DNA of 64,000 bases from Nitrosopumilaceae archaeon (GCA_965207375.1 OZ242274.1:1440001-1504000), one strand, 5' to 3'; counted from the first letter of the stretch, positions 1,945-17,905 are shown. Numbers and translations: made by a program. The notes: generated by a model not told the origin, from the letters alone.

Positions 1945-2208
1945 TTATTTTCTATTAATTTTTAAAAAAGATTCCCCTGTATCTGTTAATTGGATTTTAT
2001 AATCATCACCCTCTTGATCGCTATATACAGGAATAGTTTTAACAAGACCAAATGCTATCAAACGTCGTAGATTTTGTAATAGTATAGTTAAATTTCCATA
2101 TTTTTTAATCATGGATTCATTATTCAGTATTGTAGAATAACTTACACCATTACCCGATGCATATTCCATTAAATCGTATGATACATCAACAGCATCTATT
2201 GTAGACAT
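1945..2208 (-). CDS. Small winged-helix-like protein
   Basis: 87 aa; LRRLIAFGLV...IQLTDTGESFL wHTH-type signature; directly upstream of the nuclease-like gene. Confidence 0.5.
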   Translation of the reverse strand: MSTIDAVDVSYDLMEYASGNGVSYSTILNNESMIKKYGNLTILLQNLRRLIAFGLVKTIPVYSDQEGDDYKIQLTDTGESFLKINRK

Positions 2209-2256
2209 GTATTAACATGACAGTAATCACATATTAATTAAACATTCGGTAGGTTC

Positions 2257-10205: not shown

Positions 10206-10268
10206 ATGGGCGATGATGAGACCACACATCTGAATCAGTATGATTGATTCCATTCATTCTGAGCCCAT
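10206..10268 (+). ncRNA. Box C/D sRNA-like unit 1
   Basis: ATGGGC stem, box C ATGATGA, guide GACCACACAT, D' CTGA, C'-like ATGATT, guide GATTCCATTCATT, D CTGA, GCCCAT. Confidence 0.85.
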
Positions 10269-10344
10269 CATAACCTACTTTCACAGAAACATCTTCTGCT
10301 ATTAAATTTGTCCTTTCAGATTTGTAAAAATTCCACTAAACAAC

Positions 10345-10409
10345 ATGGGCTATGATGAAGAACAGTCGTTCTGAAACCAGATGATTCACGATTTGCAATC
10401 TGAGCCCAT
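10345..10409 (+). ncRNA. Box C/D sRNA-like unit 2
   Basis: Same scaffold; guides AGAACAGTCGTT and CACGATTTGCAAT. Confidence 0.85.
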
Positions 10410-10484
10410 CACACCCTTTTCACAAAGAATCATTTTCTCTATTAAATCTGCCGAACAAAACTTGTAAAAATTTCACTAAACAAC

Positions 10485-10555
10485 ATGGGCTATGATGAAG
10501 TCAATCAGCTGAACAATCTACAAATGTAGAGACCCGCGGCTGAATCTGAGCCCAT
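10485..10555 (+). ncRNA. Box C/D sRNA-like unit 3
   Basis: Same scaffold; guides AGTCAATCAG and GACCCGCGGCTGAAT; C'-like ATGTAGA. Confidence 0.8.
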
Positions 10556-10631
10556 CATAACTTGTCTTCACAGTAACATTTTCTATTATTAAATTTGTCC
10601 TTTTAGACTTGTAAAAATTTCACTAAACCAC

Positions 10632-10696
10632 ATGGGCGATGATGAGACCACACAAACTGACTTCTGTATGAAGAATCATCCCTGGTCTGAGCCCAT
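10632..10696 (+). ncRNA. Box C/D sRNA-like unit 4
   Basis: Same scaffold; guides GACCACACAAA and ATCATCCCTGGT; C' ATGAAGA. Confidence 0.85.
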
Positions 10697-10770
10697 CATA
10701 ACCTCATTTTCACAGAACTATTTCTGCTATAAACTTTCCATAATGAAAAACAATTACAATATTTAATGTA

Positions 10771-10865
10771 AAGTGAGCGGCGATGATGAACGCGTGCAAA
10801 TCATATCCGATGAGAGACGGAAATGTTGATGCCTGACTCGCCGAGAGTCCCTGAGCCGCACACTT
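10771..10865 (+). ncRNA. Box C/D sRNA-like unit 5 (divergent, longer)
   Basis: Different terminal stem AAGTG-a-GCGGC / GCCGC-a-CACTT enclosing ATGATGA...CCGA...TGATG...CTGA. Confidence 0.75.
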
Positions 10866-10919
10866 CTCTCAACTTTCATTTCTTTCTTTTTAAACTTTGT
10901 AAAAATTACACTAAACCAC

Positions 10920-10984
10920 ATGGGCAATGATGAGACCACACAAACTGACTTCTGTATGAAGAATCATCCCTGGTCTGAGCCCAT
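10920..10984 (+). ncRNA. Box C/D sRNA-like unit 6 (same guides as unit 4)
   Basis: Scaffold and both guides match 10632-10696. Confidence 0.85.
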
Positions 10985-11136
10985 CATAACTTGTCTTCAC
11001 AGTAACATTTTCTATATCTAAACCTGCCGCAACCACAGGTACAATTTTCGTTCTTTGCAAGAACAAGCCCAGTGAGGGTTAATTACAAGTCAAACATCGC
11101 AAGCCGATTTTGGCTAAATTTACAAAACTTACGCTC

Positions 11137-11784: not shown

Positions 11785-11971
11785 CATAACCTCATTTACA
11801 GAAACATTTTCTGCTATTAAATTTGTCCCTTTATTTTTCAAGAGACTGGTCAAAGCCGGAAATATTTTGCTCATGAAAAAAGAAAAACAGGAAAAAACAC
11901 CATATTTTCCAAGAATAAAACGAGAATTCGAAGATGACCCAGAAGACCGGGAAATCTGGTGAATCACCCCC

Positions 11972-12048
11972 TTTTTTGTGACCTGACAAGTCTTTTCAAA
12001 TCTCACAGTATCCCGTATGGGGCTGACAGGCAGGTGAGTGTGGAAAAG
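11972..12048 (+). ncRNA. Structured RNA motif, copy A
   Basis: TGTGACCTGACAA...CTTTTC...CTCAC...CTGACAGGCAG-GTGAG-TGTG-GAAAAG. Confidence 0.75.
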
Positions 12049-12064
12049 ATACAACGTGATTCAA

Positions 12065-12229
12065 ATGTACAAAAACAAAGAACTCGTAGCATCTGAGCTT
12101 GTTGAATCTAACATTCTCAGATCAGACTCTGGTTTCCTCCAGGGAATAATCACCCATGAGGAACTCACAGAGATTGACAAGTTGATGGATGAAGCATTCA
12201 TCGACTTTGACATTTTGTGTCGGGAATAA
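12065..12229 (+). CDS. Small hypothetical protein
   Basis: 54-aa ORF directly after RNA motif A. Confidence 0.5.
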   Translation: MYKNKELVASELVESNILRSDSGFLQGIITHEELTEIDKLMDEAFIDFDILCRE

Positions 12230-12246
12230 TCCGATACACAAACCCA

Positions 12247-12324
12247 TTTTTTTGTGACCTGACAAACTTTTCAAACCGGCATTATCTGATGTATCAGACT
12301 GACAGGCAGGCCGGTGTGGAAAAG
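12247..12324 (+). ncRNA. Structured RNA motif, copy B
   Basis: Inner stem CCGGC/GCCGG; hairpin TCTGAT/ATCAGA. Confidence 0.75.
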
Positions 12325-12333
12325 CAAGCAACC

Positions 12334-12744
12334 ATGAAAAAAAGACAAAAAATCAAAATCCCCATCATGGATGCCCTAAAAAAGACAAAAGAACGACTAT
12401 TCAAAATACAAAACGCTGTATTTTGGGGTATCGTTGTAGTCGGTACAGGAATGAGCATAACCGATTCAATGGTCGAAAAACCTATTTTTGTTGACGGCAT
12501 AGCCTTTATTATTGCTGGCTTCGTAGGTTTGATAATGTCTTGGATAACTGCTGATGTTGCAAAAAGTCTTACCGAAAAAATCGAAAAAGTCGGTCAAGAA
12601 ACCAAAGAGGAAATTCGCAAGGTAGGTAAAGAAACCAAAGAGGAAATTCGCAAGGTAGGTACCGCAGTTGAAAAACACATGGAAGTATCTATAAAACAAA
12701 CTGAGATCCTGGAGAAGATCTTGCACAAACTTCCAGACAAGTAG
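12334..12744 (+). CDS. Two-TM membrane protein with coiled-coil tail, copy 1
   Basis: Two hydrophobic helices, then ETKEEIRKVG repeats. Confidence 0.8.
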   Translation: MKKRQKIKIPIMDALKKTKERLFKIQNAVFWGIVVVGTGMSITDSMVEKPIFVDGIAFIIAGFVGLIMSWITADVAKSLTEKIEKVGQETKEEIRKVGKETKEEIRKVGTAVEKHMEVSIKQTEILEKILHKLPDK

Positions 12745-12763
12745 GGCATTCCAAAATCCCGTA

Positions 12764-12853
12764 TTTTTTGTGACCTGACAAACTTTTCAAATCCGTTAAT
12801 ATCGAGTATAGCGCAAGCTGTATTTGGCTGACAGGCAGAACGGTGTGGAAAAG
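12764..12853 (+). ncRNA. Structured RNA motif, copy C
   Basis: Inner stem CCGTT/AACGG; GNRA hairpin TATAGC-GCAA-GCTGTA. Confidence 0.75.
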
Positions 12854-13108
12854 CAAGCAACCATGAAAAAGATTCAAAGAATCCGAAACTCCATCATGGA
12901 TGCCCTAAAAGAAGCAAAAGACAGACTGTTCAGAAAACAAAACACACTATTTTGGGCCATCGTTATAACTGGTCTAGGAATGAGCATCGTGGGTTTAATT
13001 TTCGATGTGCGATTCCTTGTTGACCAGCTAAGCGAAATATGATTCAGATTCTTTGTCACAGTAGATTTTGGCCTATTTTGCCAACATTTCGCTTATGTTT
13101 GACTTGTA

Positions 13109-14269
13109 TCAATCTCTAATTGCTTCAGCTATTTCTTTACATACAAATATTTTACTTTTGTATTTGTTACTTATCTCATCTAGTATTTGTACGTCAATTA
13201 ATCTCTGTACAGCATTTTTTGCCGATGGGTAAGTTATGCCTAAATAATCTGCGGCTTTTGGAATTGTTATGAATGGATTTCCTAACAAATAATCTATCAA
13301 CAAGACCGCACTTCCACTAACACGTTGTTTTTTCAAAGTTTGTTTGTATTTTTTTTGAAGAGTTAACAACCTTTGAATATTTTCAATTGCCTCATCTGCC
13401 GTTACCGTTATCGCATGTAAGAAAAACATCAACCATTCTTTCCATTTACTTTGTTGACTAATGGCCAACAATCCTGCATAATACCTGTCCAAGTTTTTTT
13501 CAAAATATGCACTCAAATACAATAAGGGTTGAGAAAGCAAACCTCTTTCTGTTAAAAGTAAAGGAATCAACACTCTTCCAATTCTTCCATTTCCATCTAG
13601 AAAAGGATGTATAGCTTCAAATTGATAGTGTAGAATTGCACATTGTAGAACTACTGAAAGATTTTCTGGTGGTTTTTGTAGAAATTCTTCTACTTGTTCT
13701 AATAATGATACAACATATTCAGGTGGTGGGGGTGTATATACGGAATTTTCAAGGGTATCACCATATCTGACTATCCAATTTTGAACTGTTCTAAACGATC
13801 CTGGATTTTTATCTCCACCTCTGACCCCCATCATCAATATTTTGTGAGATTCTCTTATCATTTCTAAATCTATTTTTCTTCCATCTTTGATTATCTCCTT
13901 GATTTTTTCTTGTAACACTTTCACATAGTTTCTTACCTCTTTCAACCGTAATCTTTCTTCGTCTTCTTGACGAAAACTTCCTACTACCTCATATTGTAAT
14001 AGATCAGTCATTGATGCTAATGTTCCCTCGATTTTGGAACTTAATACGGCTTCCCGAGTAAGATAGGGTCTAATCAACACATGTGGATTTGGAAGTAAAT
14101 CACCTCTTCCTTTTAATTCCGCCAATTTTCGTTCTGCATGAACAAGAGACATTACTAAATCATCGTCATATTGTATTTCTGGTGGTATTTTATTAGGAAT
14201 AAAGGTCTCATATCCTTTCGTATTTTTTATTATTTTGCCGTTAGGATTGGTAAAGTCACTTTTATTCAT
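13109..14269 (-). CDS. fic: Fic-family protein (Fic_N + Fic + wHTH)
   Basis: HPFLDGNGRIGR catalytic motif and EAVLSSKIEG inhibitory-helix motif. Confidence 0.95.
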   Translation of the reverse strand: MNKSDFTNPNGKIIKNTKGYETFIPNKIPPEIQYDDDLVMSLVHAERKLAELKGRGDLLPNPHVLIRPYLTREAVLSSKIEGTLASMTDLLQYEVVGSFRQEDEERLRLKEVRNYVKVLQEKIKEIIKDGRKIDLEMIRESHKILMMGVRGGDKNPGSFRTVQNWIVRYGDTLENSVYTPPPPEYVVSLLEQVEEFLQKPPENLSVVLQCAILHYQFEAIHPFLDGNGRIGRVLIPLLLTERGLLSQPLLYLSAYFEKNLDRYYAGLLAISQQSKWKEWLMFFLHAITVTADEAIENIQRLLTLQKKYKQTLKKQRVSGSAVLLIDYLLGNPFITIPKAADYLGITYPSAKNAVQRLIDVQILDEISNKYKSKIFVCKEIAEAIRD

Positions 14270-14469
14270 TCACTGCACCGTTTTCTGGTCATTATAGTTT
14301 CTTTAATGAAATATTTACAAATTAAACATATTGCCATTTTTCTTTAATCTAAGATGTTTTACTATTAAAACTTGTTGGCTAAACAGCTAAGCGAAATGTG
14401 GGCAAAATAGGCCAAAATCTACCCCAAAAATGCAAACAGATCAATAGAGGCGGCTCCAGATGATTTTCA

Positions 14470-15606
14470 GTGTCCAAACAAAAAACCAAACAGAGCCGTG
14501 AACTATTAAACAATCCACGATTATATCAAGATGCCGCATCTGGTGCCAAAAACATGCTTGCATGTACTACTTTGTCAGTCAAGGGCAATACGATATATGG
14601 AGTTGATGATCTCAGTACCGGAATGTTGAGGGCTACCATTATGGATTCCTCTGTAGGAGGATGTGCAAATGCGGTAAAACAAAAAAACAGCAATACGCCA
14701 TCAGACAGATGGTATGCATCTGCAATCAAGGGGATATCAGAGGAAACAGTACAGGACGTTTTCCAATTACAGATAGCAAGACAGGTTAAAATTCTCAAAA
14801 AAATGGGAAAGATTCCAAAGAAGGGGCTTACAGTTGCAATGGACCTACACCTCATATGCCGTTATGACAGGACACATGGGGAGGAGTTGACCCGTTCCAA
14901 ATACAAAAACGGCACGACATACTTTGAGCGTTACATGACGGTTCACTGTGTGGATGATACAATGAGAGTCGTTCTAGCTGCAATACATCTCAAAATGCTT
15001 GATTCCGTGCCTAAATCGGTGAATTTTCTGCTCAAAACACTGTCGGATTTGGGGGTAAAAGTTCGTCTGGCATTATGTGATCGTGAGTTTTTCTCAGTGG
15101 ATACAATGCAAATGCTGATTCAAAACGACGTATCCTTTTTGATACCTTGCAGAAATACACCAAATGTAAAATCTGCACTAGACGAGTATAGTCGTAAAAA
15201 ACGTGATGTAACATCAGAGTGCACCCTACAAAACGACTGTCATTCTGTACCGTATACAATGATAATAGAAAGAAGAAAAGGGTCAAAGGATACTGATGTT
15301 GCCGAGGAAAAATACATTGGCTTTGCAACTAACTGTAATACTGTAGACGTTACAGAATATGCAAGTAGGTGGGGGATAGAATCAGGATACGGCAAGATAG
15401 AGGAATGCAGGGCCAAGACACGAATCAAGGATAATGTATCAAGAATGCTGTGTTTTTATTATTCACTGATACTGTACAATGAGTGGATAATTATCAGGGC
15501 TATTCTTTGTGACGATACAGCAAGTCAGAGTATTATGACCATGCTAGTTTTCAAAGTACAAATGGATTTTGAGTTGATGCGTCAGTTCAAGCCGCCGCCA
15601 GGGTAG
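14470..15606 (+). CDS. ISH3-like (IS4 superfamily) DDE transposase
   Basis: AMDLH, LCDREFFS and YASRWGIESGY motifs. Confidence 0.9.
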   Translation: MSKQKTKQSRELLNNPRLYQDAASGAKNMLACTTLSVKGNTIYGVDDLSTGMLRATIMDSSVGGCANAVKQKNSNTPSDRWYASAIKGISEETVQDVFQLQIARQVKILKKMGKIPKKGLTVAMDLHLICRYDRTHGEELTRSKYKNGTTYFERYMTVHCVDDTMRVVLAAIHLKMLDSVPKSVNFLLKTLSDLGVKVRLALCDREFFSVDTMQMLIQNDVSFLIPCRNTPNVKSALDEYSRKKRDVTSECTLQNDCHSVPYTMIIERRKGSKDTDVAEEKYIGFATNCNTVDVTEYASRWGIESGYGKIEECRAKTRIKDNVSRMLCFYYSLILYNEWIIIRAILCDDTASQSIMTMLVFKVQMDFELMRQFKPPPG

Positions 15607-15890
15607 GATTTGGGCTACATTTCGCTTAGCTGTTGACGGCATAGCCTTTATTATTGCTGGTGTCGTAGGACTGATAATGTCTTGGATGACTACCGATGTT
15701 GCAAAAAACCTCACCGATGAGATCCGCAAGGTTGGTCAAGAAACCAAAGAAACCAAAGAGGAAATCCGCAAAGTAGGTACCACAGTCGAAAAACACATGG
15801 AAGTAACTGTGAAACAGACAGAAAAACTAACCGAGATCCTGGAGAAGATCTTGCACAAACTTCCAGACAAGTAGGGCATCAAATCCCGTA

Positions 15891-15980
15891 TTTTTTGTGA
15901 CCTGACAAACTTTTCAAATCCGTTAATATCAAGTATAGCGTAAGCTGTACCCGGCTGACAGGCAGAACGGTGTGGAAAAG
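15891..15980 (+). ncRNA. Structured RNA motif, copy D
   Basis: As copy C with a GTAA tetraloop. Confidence 0.75.
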
Positions 15981-15989
15981 CAAACAACC

Positions 15990-16379
15990 ATGAAAAAGAG
16001 TCAAAAAATCAGAAACTCCGTCATGGATGCCCTAAAAAAGACAAAAGAACGACTATTCAAAATACAAAACGCTGTATTTTGGGGTATCGTTGTAGTCGGT
16101 ACAGGAATGAGCATAACCGATTCAATGGTCGAAAAACCTATTTTTGTTGACGGCATAGCCTTTATTATTGCTGGCTTCGTAGGTTTGATAATGTCTTGGA
16201 TAACTGCCGATGTTGCAAAAAGTCTTACCGAAAAAATCGAAAAAGTCGGTCAAGAAACCAAAGAGGAAATCCGCAAAGTAGGTACCACAGTCGAAAAACA
16301 CATGGAAGTAACTGTGAAACAGACAGAAAAACTAACCGAGATCCTGGAGAAGATCTTGCACAAACTTCCAGACAAGTAG
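15990..16379 (+). CDS. Two-TM membrane protein with coiled-coil tail, copy 3
   Basis: Near-identical to 12334-12744. Confidence 0.8.
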   Translation: MKKSQKIRNSVMDALKKTKERLFKIQNAVFWGIVVVGTGMSITDSMVEKPIFVDGIAFIIAGFVGLIMSWITADVAKSLTEKIEKVGQETKEEIRKVGTTVEKHMEVTVKQTEKLTEILEKILHKLPDK

Positions 16380-16397
16380 GGCATTCCAAATCCCGTA

Positions 16398-16487
16398 TTT
16401 TTTGTGACCTGACAAACTTTTCAAATCCGTTAATATCGAGTATAGCGTAAGCTGTATTTGGCTGACAGGCAGAACGGTGTGGAAAAG
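16398..16487 (+). ncRNA. Structured RNA motif, copy E
   Basis: As copies C and D. Confidence 0.75.
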
Positions 16488-16645
16488 AAATCCGCAATAG
16501 CGGTGCATGAAATTCTACATGTATTATTTGGACGCAAGTTCAATCCCAGATTTTTTGACAAATAATATTCGGATGTGGGCATAGAATTACCACATCGCAA
16601 CGGCGACAGTCGTAAAGAACTCAAACAACAAAGGAGGTTGATAAA

Positions 16646-17905
16646 ATGAGTGTAACAAACAAACCAACAAAAATCAACGTTGATGGAAAACAATATCCGT
16701 TAGCGTTTGTATGTAAAAAAATCAGAACAACCCTAAAACTCTCATCTGCCGTGTATAACCGCGGTAACACATTTTTGTGTGATGGAGATATGGTGGCTGT
16801 TCTGTCTGGAAATCACATAACATCTGTGATAACCGGCAAGAAACTAGACCTTTCACAAAGCCATGTGAAAAAAACACATGAACTAATTGATAACTGCAAA
16901 AAATCAATTGGTGATTTCACAGACTCTGCGGACTTTTATCAAAGAGAACCTGAAGGCTTTGAACCAATCAGCGGCAAAGCATTTGCAATTGGTTGGAAAA
17001 AAGACGGCTTTTACGAGTCGTTACATTTTGCAGATGCAGACGGCACAATGTTAAATGCTATACTAGACAAAGACACAATCGACACTCTAGTAAAACCATA
17101 CAACAGACCTGTAATAGAGCGTAGACATGTAAACTACACACCACGCTCAGAAGAGGTAGCGTTTGCACTAGCAGACATGCAAGGTTCTGACATACTAGTC
17201 CGTACGGAAAACCAATTCCATGGAAAAGTTACAGAACCCATATTTGTCGAGGAGCAACCATCAGAACAATACCAGTTTCTTTTATCTGATGATGGTCAAA
17301 TCTTGACACAAAAGTACACACCGATAAAGGAATGTGACTGCATATCTGTATCATCAATGAGTGATGAGTTCAGAGAAGCATTTGCTGATATTATCGACGA
17401 ATCACAAATGGGTGCAAAAACAGACTATACAACAGAGGCCCAAATATGTGAAGAAATAATAGACATAGAAGATGTGGTACCTTCACACTTTGTAGCAGAC
17501 AAAACAGCAAGAGATGTCAAAAGACAAAGCCAGAGTATACACACAGGTGAGAGAACACACAAGCCAAGAAAACATGACAATAGGACATACAATCCTGCTG
17601 ACATTTTGTCTCATGCCAAAACACTAGACAGCAAATCTTTGATTGTTATCTACAAACCAATGATATCACAATATCATGACCACGGTGAGACTGAACGACA
17701 CTGCAACATCTGTGTCTTTGAAGATGTATCAGAAAATCTTGAAGATACAATGGTGTCTCTTCGTGGCATGGAAGCATCTCAACTAACTGTATTTATCAAA
17801 ACAGTTGAAACCGCAATGGACCAACTACAGGTACCAACACACAAGGAGCCTGTGGAATTATCCATCGCAAAAAGCCTGCTAAAAGCAAAGTCTTCACATT
17901 GCTAA
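16646..17905 (+). CDS. Hypothetical protein, N-terminally similar to 11137-11646
   Basis: 419 aa; GGAGGT Shine-Dalgarno. Confidence 0.8.
   Translation: MSVTNKPTKINVDGKQYPLAFVCKKIRTTLKLSSAVYNRGNTFLCDGDMVAVLSGNHITSVITGKKLDLSQSHVKKTHELIDNCKKSIGDFTDSADFYQREPEGFEPISGKAFAIGWKKDGFYESLHFADADGTMLNAILDKDTIDTLVKPYNRPVIERRHVNYTPRSEEVAFALADMQGSDILVRTENQFHGKVTEPIFVEEQPSEQYQFLLSDDGQILTQKYTPIKECDCISVSSMSDEFREAFADIIDESQMGAKTDYTTEAQICEEIIDIEDVVPSHFVADKTARDVKRQSQSIHTGERTHKPRKHDNRTYNPADILSHAKTLDSKSLIVIYKPMISQYHDHGETERHCNICVFEDVSENLEDTMVSLRGMEASQLTVFIKTVETAMDQLQVPTHKEPVELSIAKSLLKAKSSHC

Follow-up and report, generated by a model that had tools for sequence, protein, structure and literature searches.

We describe here a structured RNA element, five copies of which are found in a 64,000-nt stretch of DNA from a Nitrosopumilaceae archaeon (GCA_965207375.1 OZ242274.1:1440001-1504000; this entire stretch is called the window below). 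The element is a pseudoknotted RNA of 75-95 nt (about 80 nt), built of three nested helices and a 5' pseudoknot, and all of its relatives are found in clustered, co-oriented arrays within integrated elements of Nitrosopumilaceae. It constitutes a previously undescribed RNA family, probably working like the known small processing RNAs. We read it, tentatively and with a little less than even confidence, as an RNA-processing module acting between cistrons, the likeliest form of which is a new self-cleaving ribozyme. According to this model, the element would lie in the gaps of polycistronic transcripts from mobile elements integrated in Nitrosopumilaceae genomes, and would separate the downstream RNA, whether an mRNA, a tRNA or a C/D-box small RNA (sRNA), from the upstream cistron, giving it a defined 5' end; the cut would be made by the RNA itself, working beside the hammerhead ribozymes of the same mobile elements. 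We infer that the gaps are transcribed through, that processing takes place in them and that RNA is the catalyst.

The order of parts, from the 5' to the 3' end, is a U-tract, UGA, the 5' strand of the pseudoknot, NCAA, the 5' strand of the outer helix P1, AAA(Y), the 5' strand of the inner helix P2, about 4 nt, a variable hairpin (P3), YYGA, the 3' strand of the pseudoknot, 3 nt, the 3' strand of P2, UGUG, and the 3' strand of P1. As read from the aligned sequences, the fold is an H-type pseudoknot into which a hairpin is embedded, and about 25 of its unpaired nucleotides are nearly invariant. An earlier note, made from the window sequence alone, had proposed compensatory base changes in this structure, and these are genuine. 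The alignment and the folds agree on P2, whose strands are wholly different between copy A (CTCAC/GTGAG), copy B (CCGGC/GCCGG) and copies C-E (CCGTT/AACGG), and they reproduce the outer helix CTTTTC/GAAAAG, invariant in the window; the variable hairpin stays paired as described, with GCAA or GTAA loops in C-E. The signal is far stronger once relatives are added. In an alignment of 66 distinct sequences (A4), standard pairs fill 90.4% of the P1/P2 cells, versus 69.8% in shuffles, the covariation score of 0.596 compares with 0.208 for shuffles and no more than 0.117 when partners are slid, and double changes are seen in 9 of the 11 pairs; fitting this alignment to the model works in favour of the structure, but the slid controls still score far lower. 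There are 24 distinct strand combinations for P2, mismatched ones included, and 41 for P1 (a separate parse). As to the pseudoknot between CCUG and CAGG, put forward as a guess in the earlier note, it is backed by covariation in a second sequence type that occurs in the same arrays and has CUGAG/CUCAG; single lineages have CCGAG/CUCGG or CUGGG/CCCAG, the pseudoknot thus being seen as four mutually incompatible helices, with 260 Watson-Crick and 6 G-U pairs in 275 cells. The inner hairpin varies in length (3-11 bp), and its loop is of the GNRA type in 27 of the 66 copies.

Within the window, the five copies proposed earlier, all on the plus strand, were confirmed, each at its place (Table 1). 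The invariant 11-mer in the core of the element, CTGACAGGCAG, occurs at exactly five sites in the window, and at one additional site (25605) with one mismatch; allowing one mismatch, these six matches compare with 0.79 expected, and six were reached in none of 100 shuffles. Likewise, the 14-mer TTGTGACCTGACAA has exactly five sites in the window (with two mismatches, 2 of 100 shuffles reach five), and the 12-mer 5' box is found only at these five places in the whole 4.3-Mb genome. Copies C, D and E arose by tandem duplication of a small membrane-protein gene along with its upstream element and hence are near-identical, and the window therefore represents three independent variants, not five. 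The proposal that each copy is placed before a gene holds for four of the five, copy E being followed by a 158-nt leader that precedes the next open reading frame (ORF). An ATG does follow the other four shortly, at 9 nt (B, C and D) or 16 nt (A), and those genes have no Shine-Dalgarno sequence.

Relatives were sought with a covariance model built from the five window copies (R1), run on 150 genomes of the same family. At E<=1e-5, it matched in seven genomes, G000 among them, always in single-strand clusters. Ten further genomes gave lone matches at E of 0.3-0.96, taken as noise; three of these (G001, G035 and G094) gave weak matches to a rebuilt model (R2), which look like diverged variants. 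The R2 model returned 81 matches (66 distinct), all in the window and in Nitrosopumilaceae loci, and none in 20 loci of unrelated bacteria that had been retrieved by a pattern scan. In a sample of the class, it matched 9 of 80 other Nitrosopumilaceae genomes and none of 70 genomes from 11 other families. The full set, with loci added, stands at 84 distinct sequences out of 115 matches; seven loci (L059, L062, L065, L067, L077, L079 and L081), being the same records as L039-L047, were left out of the model run. An exact 26-nt pattern had no match in collections of genome contigs or viral contigs, nor did a looser pattern in the viral contigs, and a pattern scan of metagenomes, with at least 120 matching stretches, mostly due to chance, gave real copies in 2 of the 80 loci examined. 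A phage collection held no similar DNA, and only distant relatives of the PolB protein (<25% identity). The description of the RNA as unrecognised proved accurate: no family of Rfam 15 matched the window copies at gathering thresholds, nor was there a match at E<=10 between 11800 and 16700, and five related loci, searched at E<=0.1, likewise gave no match at their copies. Literature searches, with supplements outside their scope, returned no description of this RNA, and the part of PMC6563490 consulted mentions no RNA structure.

The window contains an integrated mobile element positioned beside a tRNA-Phe gene, with a cargo that includes PolB, a D5-like helicase, a PriL-like protein, methylases, an ArdC-like protein, a nuclease and several insertion sequences (IS), and the RNA copies occupy the gaps of its left-hand gene array. 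A typical gap consists of the upstream stop codon, 5-25 nt, a T-run, the fold, 0-60 nt and the next gene. A run of at least five T ends 0-4 nt upstream of the fold in 72 of 80 copies; in two copies of G028, a GC hairpin replaces it. The RNA is present in nearly every gap of arrays of mutually unrelated small genes, always on the strand of the genes, and in 5-19 copies per mobile element. In locus L076, tRNA-Ile genes begin 0-1 nt after two of the copies, in G016 some copies have a C/D-box-like RNA about 4 nt or less downstream, and some copies stand in tandem with no ORF in between. These three contexts argue against a device specific to translation and against a riboswitch, and two of the three functions for which the earlier note had left room, a riboswitch and a translation element, are thus disfavoured, while the third, a new ribozyme, is favoured by an association with hammerheads.

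The same contexts bear on the possibility of a regulatory 5' leader, in which a riboswitch, or a site for a protein of the mobile element, would control translation, with the 3' strand of P1 (GGAAAGG, GGAG..) as a masked ribosome-binding region. Riboswitch aptamers likewise have many invariant junction nucleotides and a pseudoknot. The 3' strand of P1 is rich in purines and, for many start codons, only 5-20 nt away, the genes that the element precedes in the window have no Shine-Dalgarno sequence of their own, and the 3' end of the 16S rRNA reads ..GGATCACCTCCT. However, copies are found in front of tRNA-Ile genes and C/D-box-like RNAs, and in tandem without ORFs, the spacing to the start codon varies from 0 to about 60 nt, with a separate Shine-Dalgarno sequence where it is long, and 5-19 copies per mobile element before unrelated genes are unlike a metabolite sensor. 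We consider this explanation quite unlikely. Riboswitches as a class are recognised by a conserved aptamer before the genes of one pathway, joined to an expression platform, and here the downstream genes are unrelated and include tRNA and C/D-like RNA.

Type I hammerhead ribozymes are encoded in the same mobile elements. A pattern scan of 29 sources returned 10 cores in 6 loci, all on the strand of the element, and the Rfam hammerhead model RF00163 scored 35.4, 33.8 and 28.2 bits (gathering score 34) on the G016 contig that carries four elements, and 27.5 bits, on the element strand, in locus L070, when related loci were scanned. In 8 of the 10, the cleavage site lies 1-2 nt upstream of a start codon, and cutting would therefore leave a leaderless mRNA. 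The units on G016 follow the order T-run, element, C/D-like RNA, hammerhead, ORF, and one hammerhead starts 9 nt downstream of a T6 run, thus acting only if transcription reads through the run. Orthologous genes for a membrane-anchored nuclease (38% identity, E of 1e-50 and 2e-47) have a hammerhead upstream in L053 and L070 and the element upstream in L047, the two RNAs therefore being interchangeable in position. The element resembles the hammerheads in its strand, in the kind of gap it occupies, in the orthologue downstream and, for some of the hammerheads, in the place directly behind a T-run, but it does not have the CUGANGA...GAAA...UH core around three helices; and whereas 8 of the 10 hammerheads end 1-2 nt before the ATG, the element usually leaves 5-60 nt, or 0-4 nt when a tRNA or a C/D-like RNA follows. 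Literature searches found no report of hammerheads in Nitrosopumilus, nor of a natural hammerhead making leaderless mRNA.

We favour self-cleavage because the element is associated with, and replaced by, hammerheads, and because conserved junctions combined with variable stems are typical of small ribozymes. That the RNA itself cleaves, as a new ribozyme class beside the hammerheads, is the favoured route but, taken separately, less likely than not; we would be equally hesitant to propose a new class specific to the mobile elements of ammonia-oxidising archaea that would cut read-through transcripts together with the hammerheads. A number of observations weigh against processing by a ribozyme. 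T-runs of 6-10 are strong archaeal termination signals, and long polycistronic RNAs therefore need read-through. A search for sequencing runs containing the locus returned no RNA run, but four runs of unrecorded kind, and no contig listed for three of the data sets spanned the stretch. The association with ribozymes is circumstantial. The window itself has no hammerhead, and RF00163 matches only weakly in G041, misses both of the hammerheads found by pattern in G028 and has no match in G217 or G242. The element contains no known ribozyme core, and no cleavage site can be named. Strand-specific signals expected of an RNA are not clear either, with G-U versus A-C mismatches at 43/46 in P1, 7/8 in P2 and 6/2 in the pseudoknot. 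For the P3 segment, the plus strand gives no better folding (24 versus 28 of 52), and for the whole element it is only modestly better (41 versus 24 of 66), the sequences not being independent of one another.

The question of where transcription starts separates the favoured reading from the possibility of a promoter module, in which the T-run and the A/C-rich 5' flank would represent a TFIIB recognition element (BRE) and a TATA box, CAAA would be the start site, each gap would contain a terminator and a promoter, and the 3' two-thirds alone (P2 and P3) would be present in the RNA. The spacing is suggestive, being 25-30 nt from the first T of the run to the A of the invariant CAAA and 30-33 nt from TTTAWAW to the mature 5' end in the host tRNA genes; flanks such as CAAAACCC..TATATTTTTTT recall the BRE-TATA of the host, and the gaps hold no other AT-rich box. 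However, P1 and the pseudoknot, both of which covary, join the transcribed part to the part that would not be transcribed. With a matrix derived from 46 tRNA promoters of the host, the T-run regions scored 0.8-3.1 bits, versus a median of 7.2 and a minimum of 1.8 for those promoters, so no archaeal BRE/TATA promoter, expected 27-33 nt before a start, is recognised at the T-run. The best score anywhere in the copies with this rather crude matrix was 6.9, below the 95th percentile of random windows (7.6), and it located no convincing promoter in the relatives. The two G028 copies with a GC hairpin instead of the T-run, and the hammerhead 9 nt behind a T-run, which must be transcribed from upstream, also argue against a promoter, and we assign this model a low probability, similar to that of the regulatory leader. 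The only promoter-like box near the array lies before copy A and is, judging by its sequence, the probable start of the transcript carrying copies A-E. From this box, from the low scores of the T-runs and from the way P1 and the pseudoknot tie the would-be untranscribed part to the fold, we infer that the array is expressed as one read-through transcript.

The leading rival to self-cleavage is a shield against nuclease and termination. According to this scenario, the host termination factor aCPSF1, recruited by the U-tract, would cut the transcript there, and the compact pseudoknot would stop 5'-3' 'torpedo' decay, allowing transcription and the downstream RNA to survive. In its favour are the position of the T-run immediately before the fold and the tandem copies without ORFs, and the host encodes both aCPSF1 (TIGR03675, 801 bits, cut-off 580) and a KH-less beta-CASP paralogue of 421 aa. 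The part of PMC8716108 consulted describes binding of aCPSF1 to terminator U-tracts, with a thaumarchaeal orthologue behaving likewise. The pseudoknot between the 5' strand and the junction, within an enclosing outer helix, is also the topology of exoribonuclease-resistant RNAs (xrRNAs) of flaviviruses and plant viruses, which may also occur in tandem copies. The intergenic or untranslated placement of xrRNAs defines a 5' end, and the element is placed likewise. On the other hand, no xrRNA family of Rfam matches and there is no sequence similarity, the helices are nested and form no three-way junction, a linker of 3-4 nt separates the pseudoknot from P1, the U-tract stands in front of the element, and the host enzymes would be beta-CASP nucleases rather than Xrn1. 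In xrRNAs, which stall a 5'-3' exonuclease, the 5' end pairs into the helical junction to form a ring; in the element, covariation supports pairing of the 5' strand with the P3/P2 junction, and this pseudoknot topology would be all that the two share. A literature search found no archaeal xrRNAs. Finally, a shield does not by itself explain replacement by hammerheads, though a hammerhead would give the same end result. Overall, this scenario, although the leading rival, appears improbable.

The lack of a wobble bias between strands would also agree with an element acting as DNA, folded in the single-stranded state and serving as a priming or recombination site, similar to an attC cassette boundary, in replication or transfer. 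The arrays are cassette-like, with differences in copy number and tandem duplications of a gene plus element, and the mobile element carries PolB, primase subunits, an OB-fold protein and an ArdC-like protein. The pattern of conservation, with conserved junctions and variable stems, is nevertheless the opposite of that in attC sites, which have the conserved core motifs RYYYAAC/GTTRRRY (R''/R'), conserved paired boxes and a neighbouring IntI. These cores are absent from the element as read from its sequence, and a Pfam scan of 30 ORFs revealed no integrase domain. GNRA loops are enriched, copies keep strictly to the starts of genes, and the element and the hammerheads, whose action is confined to RNA, can take each other's place. 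We regard a DNA-level function as very improbable. A number of other candidates were also considered and rejected: a kink-turn and a bulge-helix-bulge by inspecting the junction sequences, a -1 frameshift site because the T-run lies after the upstream stop codon, a triple helix between the U-tract and P1 because the T-run persists where P1 has no A-run, and a repeat similar to miniature inverted-repeat transposable elements because stems vary while junctions are conserved. As to mimicry of CRISPR repeats, a crude repeat scan of the genome revealed no CRISPR-like array resembling the element.

Of the known self-cleaving classes, twister-sister, pistol and hatchet are the most similar in general design, with about 80 nt, covarying helices around many invariant unpaired nucleotides and a pseudoknot, and in occurring as many intergenic copies in mobile-element DNA with hammerheads adjoining, the three classes being known from phage-like gene neighbourhoods. 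All three were themselves found through association with hammerheads. They differ from the element in that no Rfam model matches it at E<=10 and in that its host range is archaeal. A loose resemblance to hatchet ribozymes had been suggested in the earlier note, and this does not hold, as hatchet gave no match even at this permissive threshold and the fold differs, being made of three nested helices and a pseudoknot. According to the part of PMC6154101 consulted, hatchet is built of four stems (P1-P4), conserves nucleotides in the linker from P1 to P2 and in two P2-P3 bulges, and cleaves at the base of P1, at C-U (PMC6154101). The ribozymes of hepatitis delta virus (HDV) type, including the phage 'theta' ribozymes, resemble the element in strand order, which, with a 5' strand that pairs behind an inner hairpin and an outer helix that closes the fold, is similar to a nested double pseudoknot. 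Theta ribozymes also adjoin tRNA genes in viruses. However, no P1.1, P4, conserved L3 or J4/2 cytosine can be assigned in the element, its inner hairpin and loop are variable, and no HDV-type model of Rfam matches.

To our knowledge, structured cis-acting RNAs are very sparsely represented in Archaea, and almost not at all in Thaumarchaeota and their mobile elements. The evidence for this one is unusually clean, with three covarying helices and a covarying pseudoknot in 84 distinct sequences, and its neighbourhood is striking, with hammerheads that would make leaderless mRNAs and with tRNAs and C/D-box-like RNAs borne by the mobile elements. If the element is a new ribozyme class that acts together with the hammerheads, the products would be separate leaderless or short-leader mRNAs, tRNAs and C/D-box guide RNAs, and this would be ribozyme-based operon processing in Archaea. 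If the RNA is self-cleaving, it would add a class of ribozymes and explain the expression of many genes by an archaeal mobile element in which every gene is followed by a termination signal. Should it block nucleases of the aCPSF1 type instead, viral xrRNAs would have their first counterpart in Archaea, and studies of archaeal termination would gain a tool.

Table 1. Copies of the RNA element in the window and features discussed with them. Copies are measured from the T-run to the end of the outer helix; paired strands are given as 5' strand/3' strand; bits are scores with the R2 model.
Feature	Position	Strand	T-run	Pseudoknot	P1	P2	P3	Remarks
Promoter-like box CTATTAAATTTGTCC	11814-11828	+						Before 29-aa ORF and copy A; common to six upstream C/D-like units; read from sequence
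29-aa ORF	11873-11962	+						Ends 9 nt upstream of copy A T-run; read from sequence
Copy A	11972-12050	+	11972-11977	CCTG 11982-11985/CAGG 12027-12030	11990-11997/12043-12050	CTCAC 12002-12006/GTGAG 12034-12038	12011-12022	85.9 bits
54-aa ORF after copy A	12065-12229	+						Weak SHOCT_2 match under Pfam cut-off
Copy B	12247-12324	+	12247-12253	12258-12261/12303-12306	12267-12272/12319-12324	CCGGC 12276-12280/GCCGG 12310-12314	12285-12298	88.2 bits
136-aa small membrane protein after copy B	12334-12744	+						Paralogues behind C and D
Copy C	12764-12853	+	12764-12769	12774-12777/12832-12835	12783-12788/12848-12853	CCGTT 12793-12797/AACGG 12839-12843	12803-12826, 10 bp, GCAA loop	
Paralogue after copy C, 5' part	12863-13026	+						Split by insertion; 3' part ~15626-15874
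Copy D	15891-15980	+		15901-15904/15959-15962	15910-15915/15975-15980	15920-15924/15966-15970	GUAA loop	Duplicate of C
129-aa paralogue after copy D	15990-16379	+						
Copy E	16398-16487	+		16408-16411/16466-16469	16417-16422/16482-16487	16427-16431/16473-16477		Duplicate of C
158-nt leader after copy E	16488-16645	+						Reaches 419-aa ORF
419-aa ORF	16646-17905	+						GGAGG Shine-Dalgarno; conserved gene closing array
Hammerheads outside the window, positions of L040 (G016:C31)	531-579, 1796-1844, 2170-2218	-						Also in L047, L048, L053 and L070/L051

Further details of the non-coding genes near the element are as follows. In L076, the tRNA-Ile(GAT) genes (868-955 and 2002-2091), of 88-90 nt, each stand directly behind a copy, and truncated or rearranged tRNA-Ile copies, also directly behind the element, are present near 1476-1500 and 1669-1760, one insert containing C/D-box-like words. 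Upstream of the array in the window (10207-10990, plus strand) are six tandem units resembling C/D-box sRNAs. Their terminal stem is ATGGGC../..GCCCAT, their boxes are GATGATGA and CTGA, and a CTATTAAATTTGTCC-like box precedes every unit; on these units, Rfam sR5 scored 30.2 and 29.1 bits, under its gathering score of 40.

The membrane-protein gene behind copy C is interrupted by an insertion (13027-15625) flanked by a TTGAC duplication. It contains a Fic/DOC gene (13109-14269, minus strand) and a DDE transposase gene (14470-15606), and its ends are CAGCTAAGCGAAAT-type inverted repeats, a third copy of the repeat being located near 14385. The depth of the contig is about tenfold higher over the transposase part, marking a multicopy IS. 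As to the assembly G000, its contig C1 has 46 of the 60 tRNAs and the sole site of the conserved 16S 3'-end motif, along with eight tRNA-Phe calls, several of which have upstream flanks that are nearly the same, as would be expected had many elements integrated at that place. The other 14 tRNAs are on contigs C2-C4 (2.1 Mb), where long tandem repeats also occur; one of these repeats, on C4, numbers at least 112 copies. The genomes of relatives in the genus are 1.3-3.2 Mb, and the assembly may include extra replicons or foreign contigs.

Leaders of another kind also follow copies of the element. Relatives of the 419-aa ORF hold the equivalent place in G014, G061 and G041, and the leader before it in the window contains a CCGC-AATA-GCGG hairpin and a block, ..CATGAAATTCTACATGTATTATTTGG, that is kept before the orthologous large gene in G014 and G061; a further T6-GAC word is present in the same leader. 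A second conserved leader, of about 150 nt, stands behind copies of the second sequence type in L094 and L095 of G217 (for example, L095 6852-7060). It consists of a hairpin and T5, a conserved block, AAGGAGG, ATG and about 20 shared codons (MVRQNSASESTQNNSQNP), and heads non-homologous ORFs; more diverged variants of the pseudoknot element precede other such leaders.

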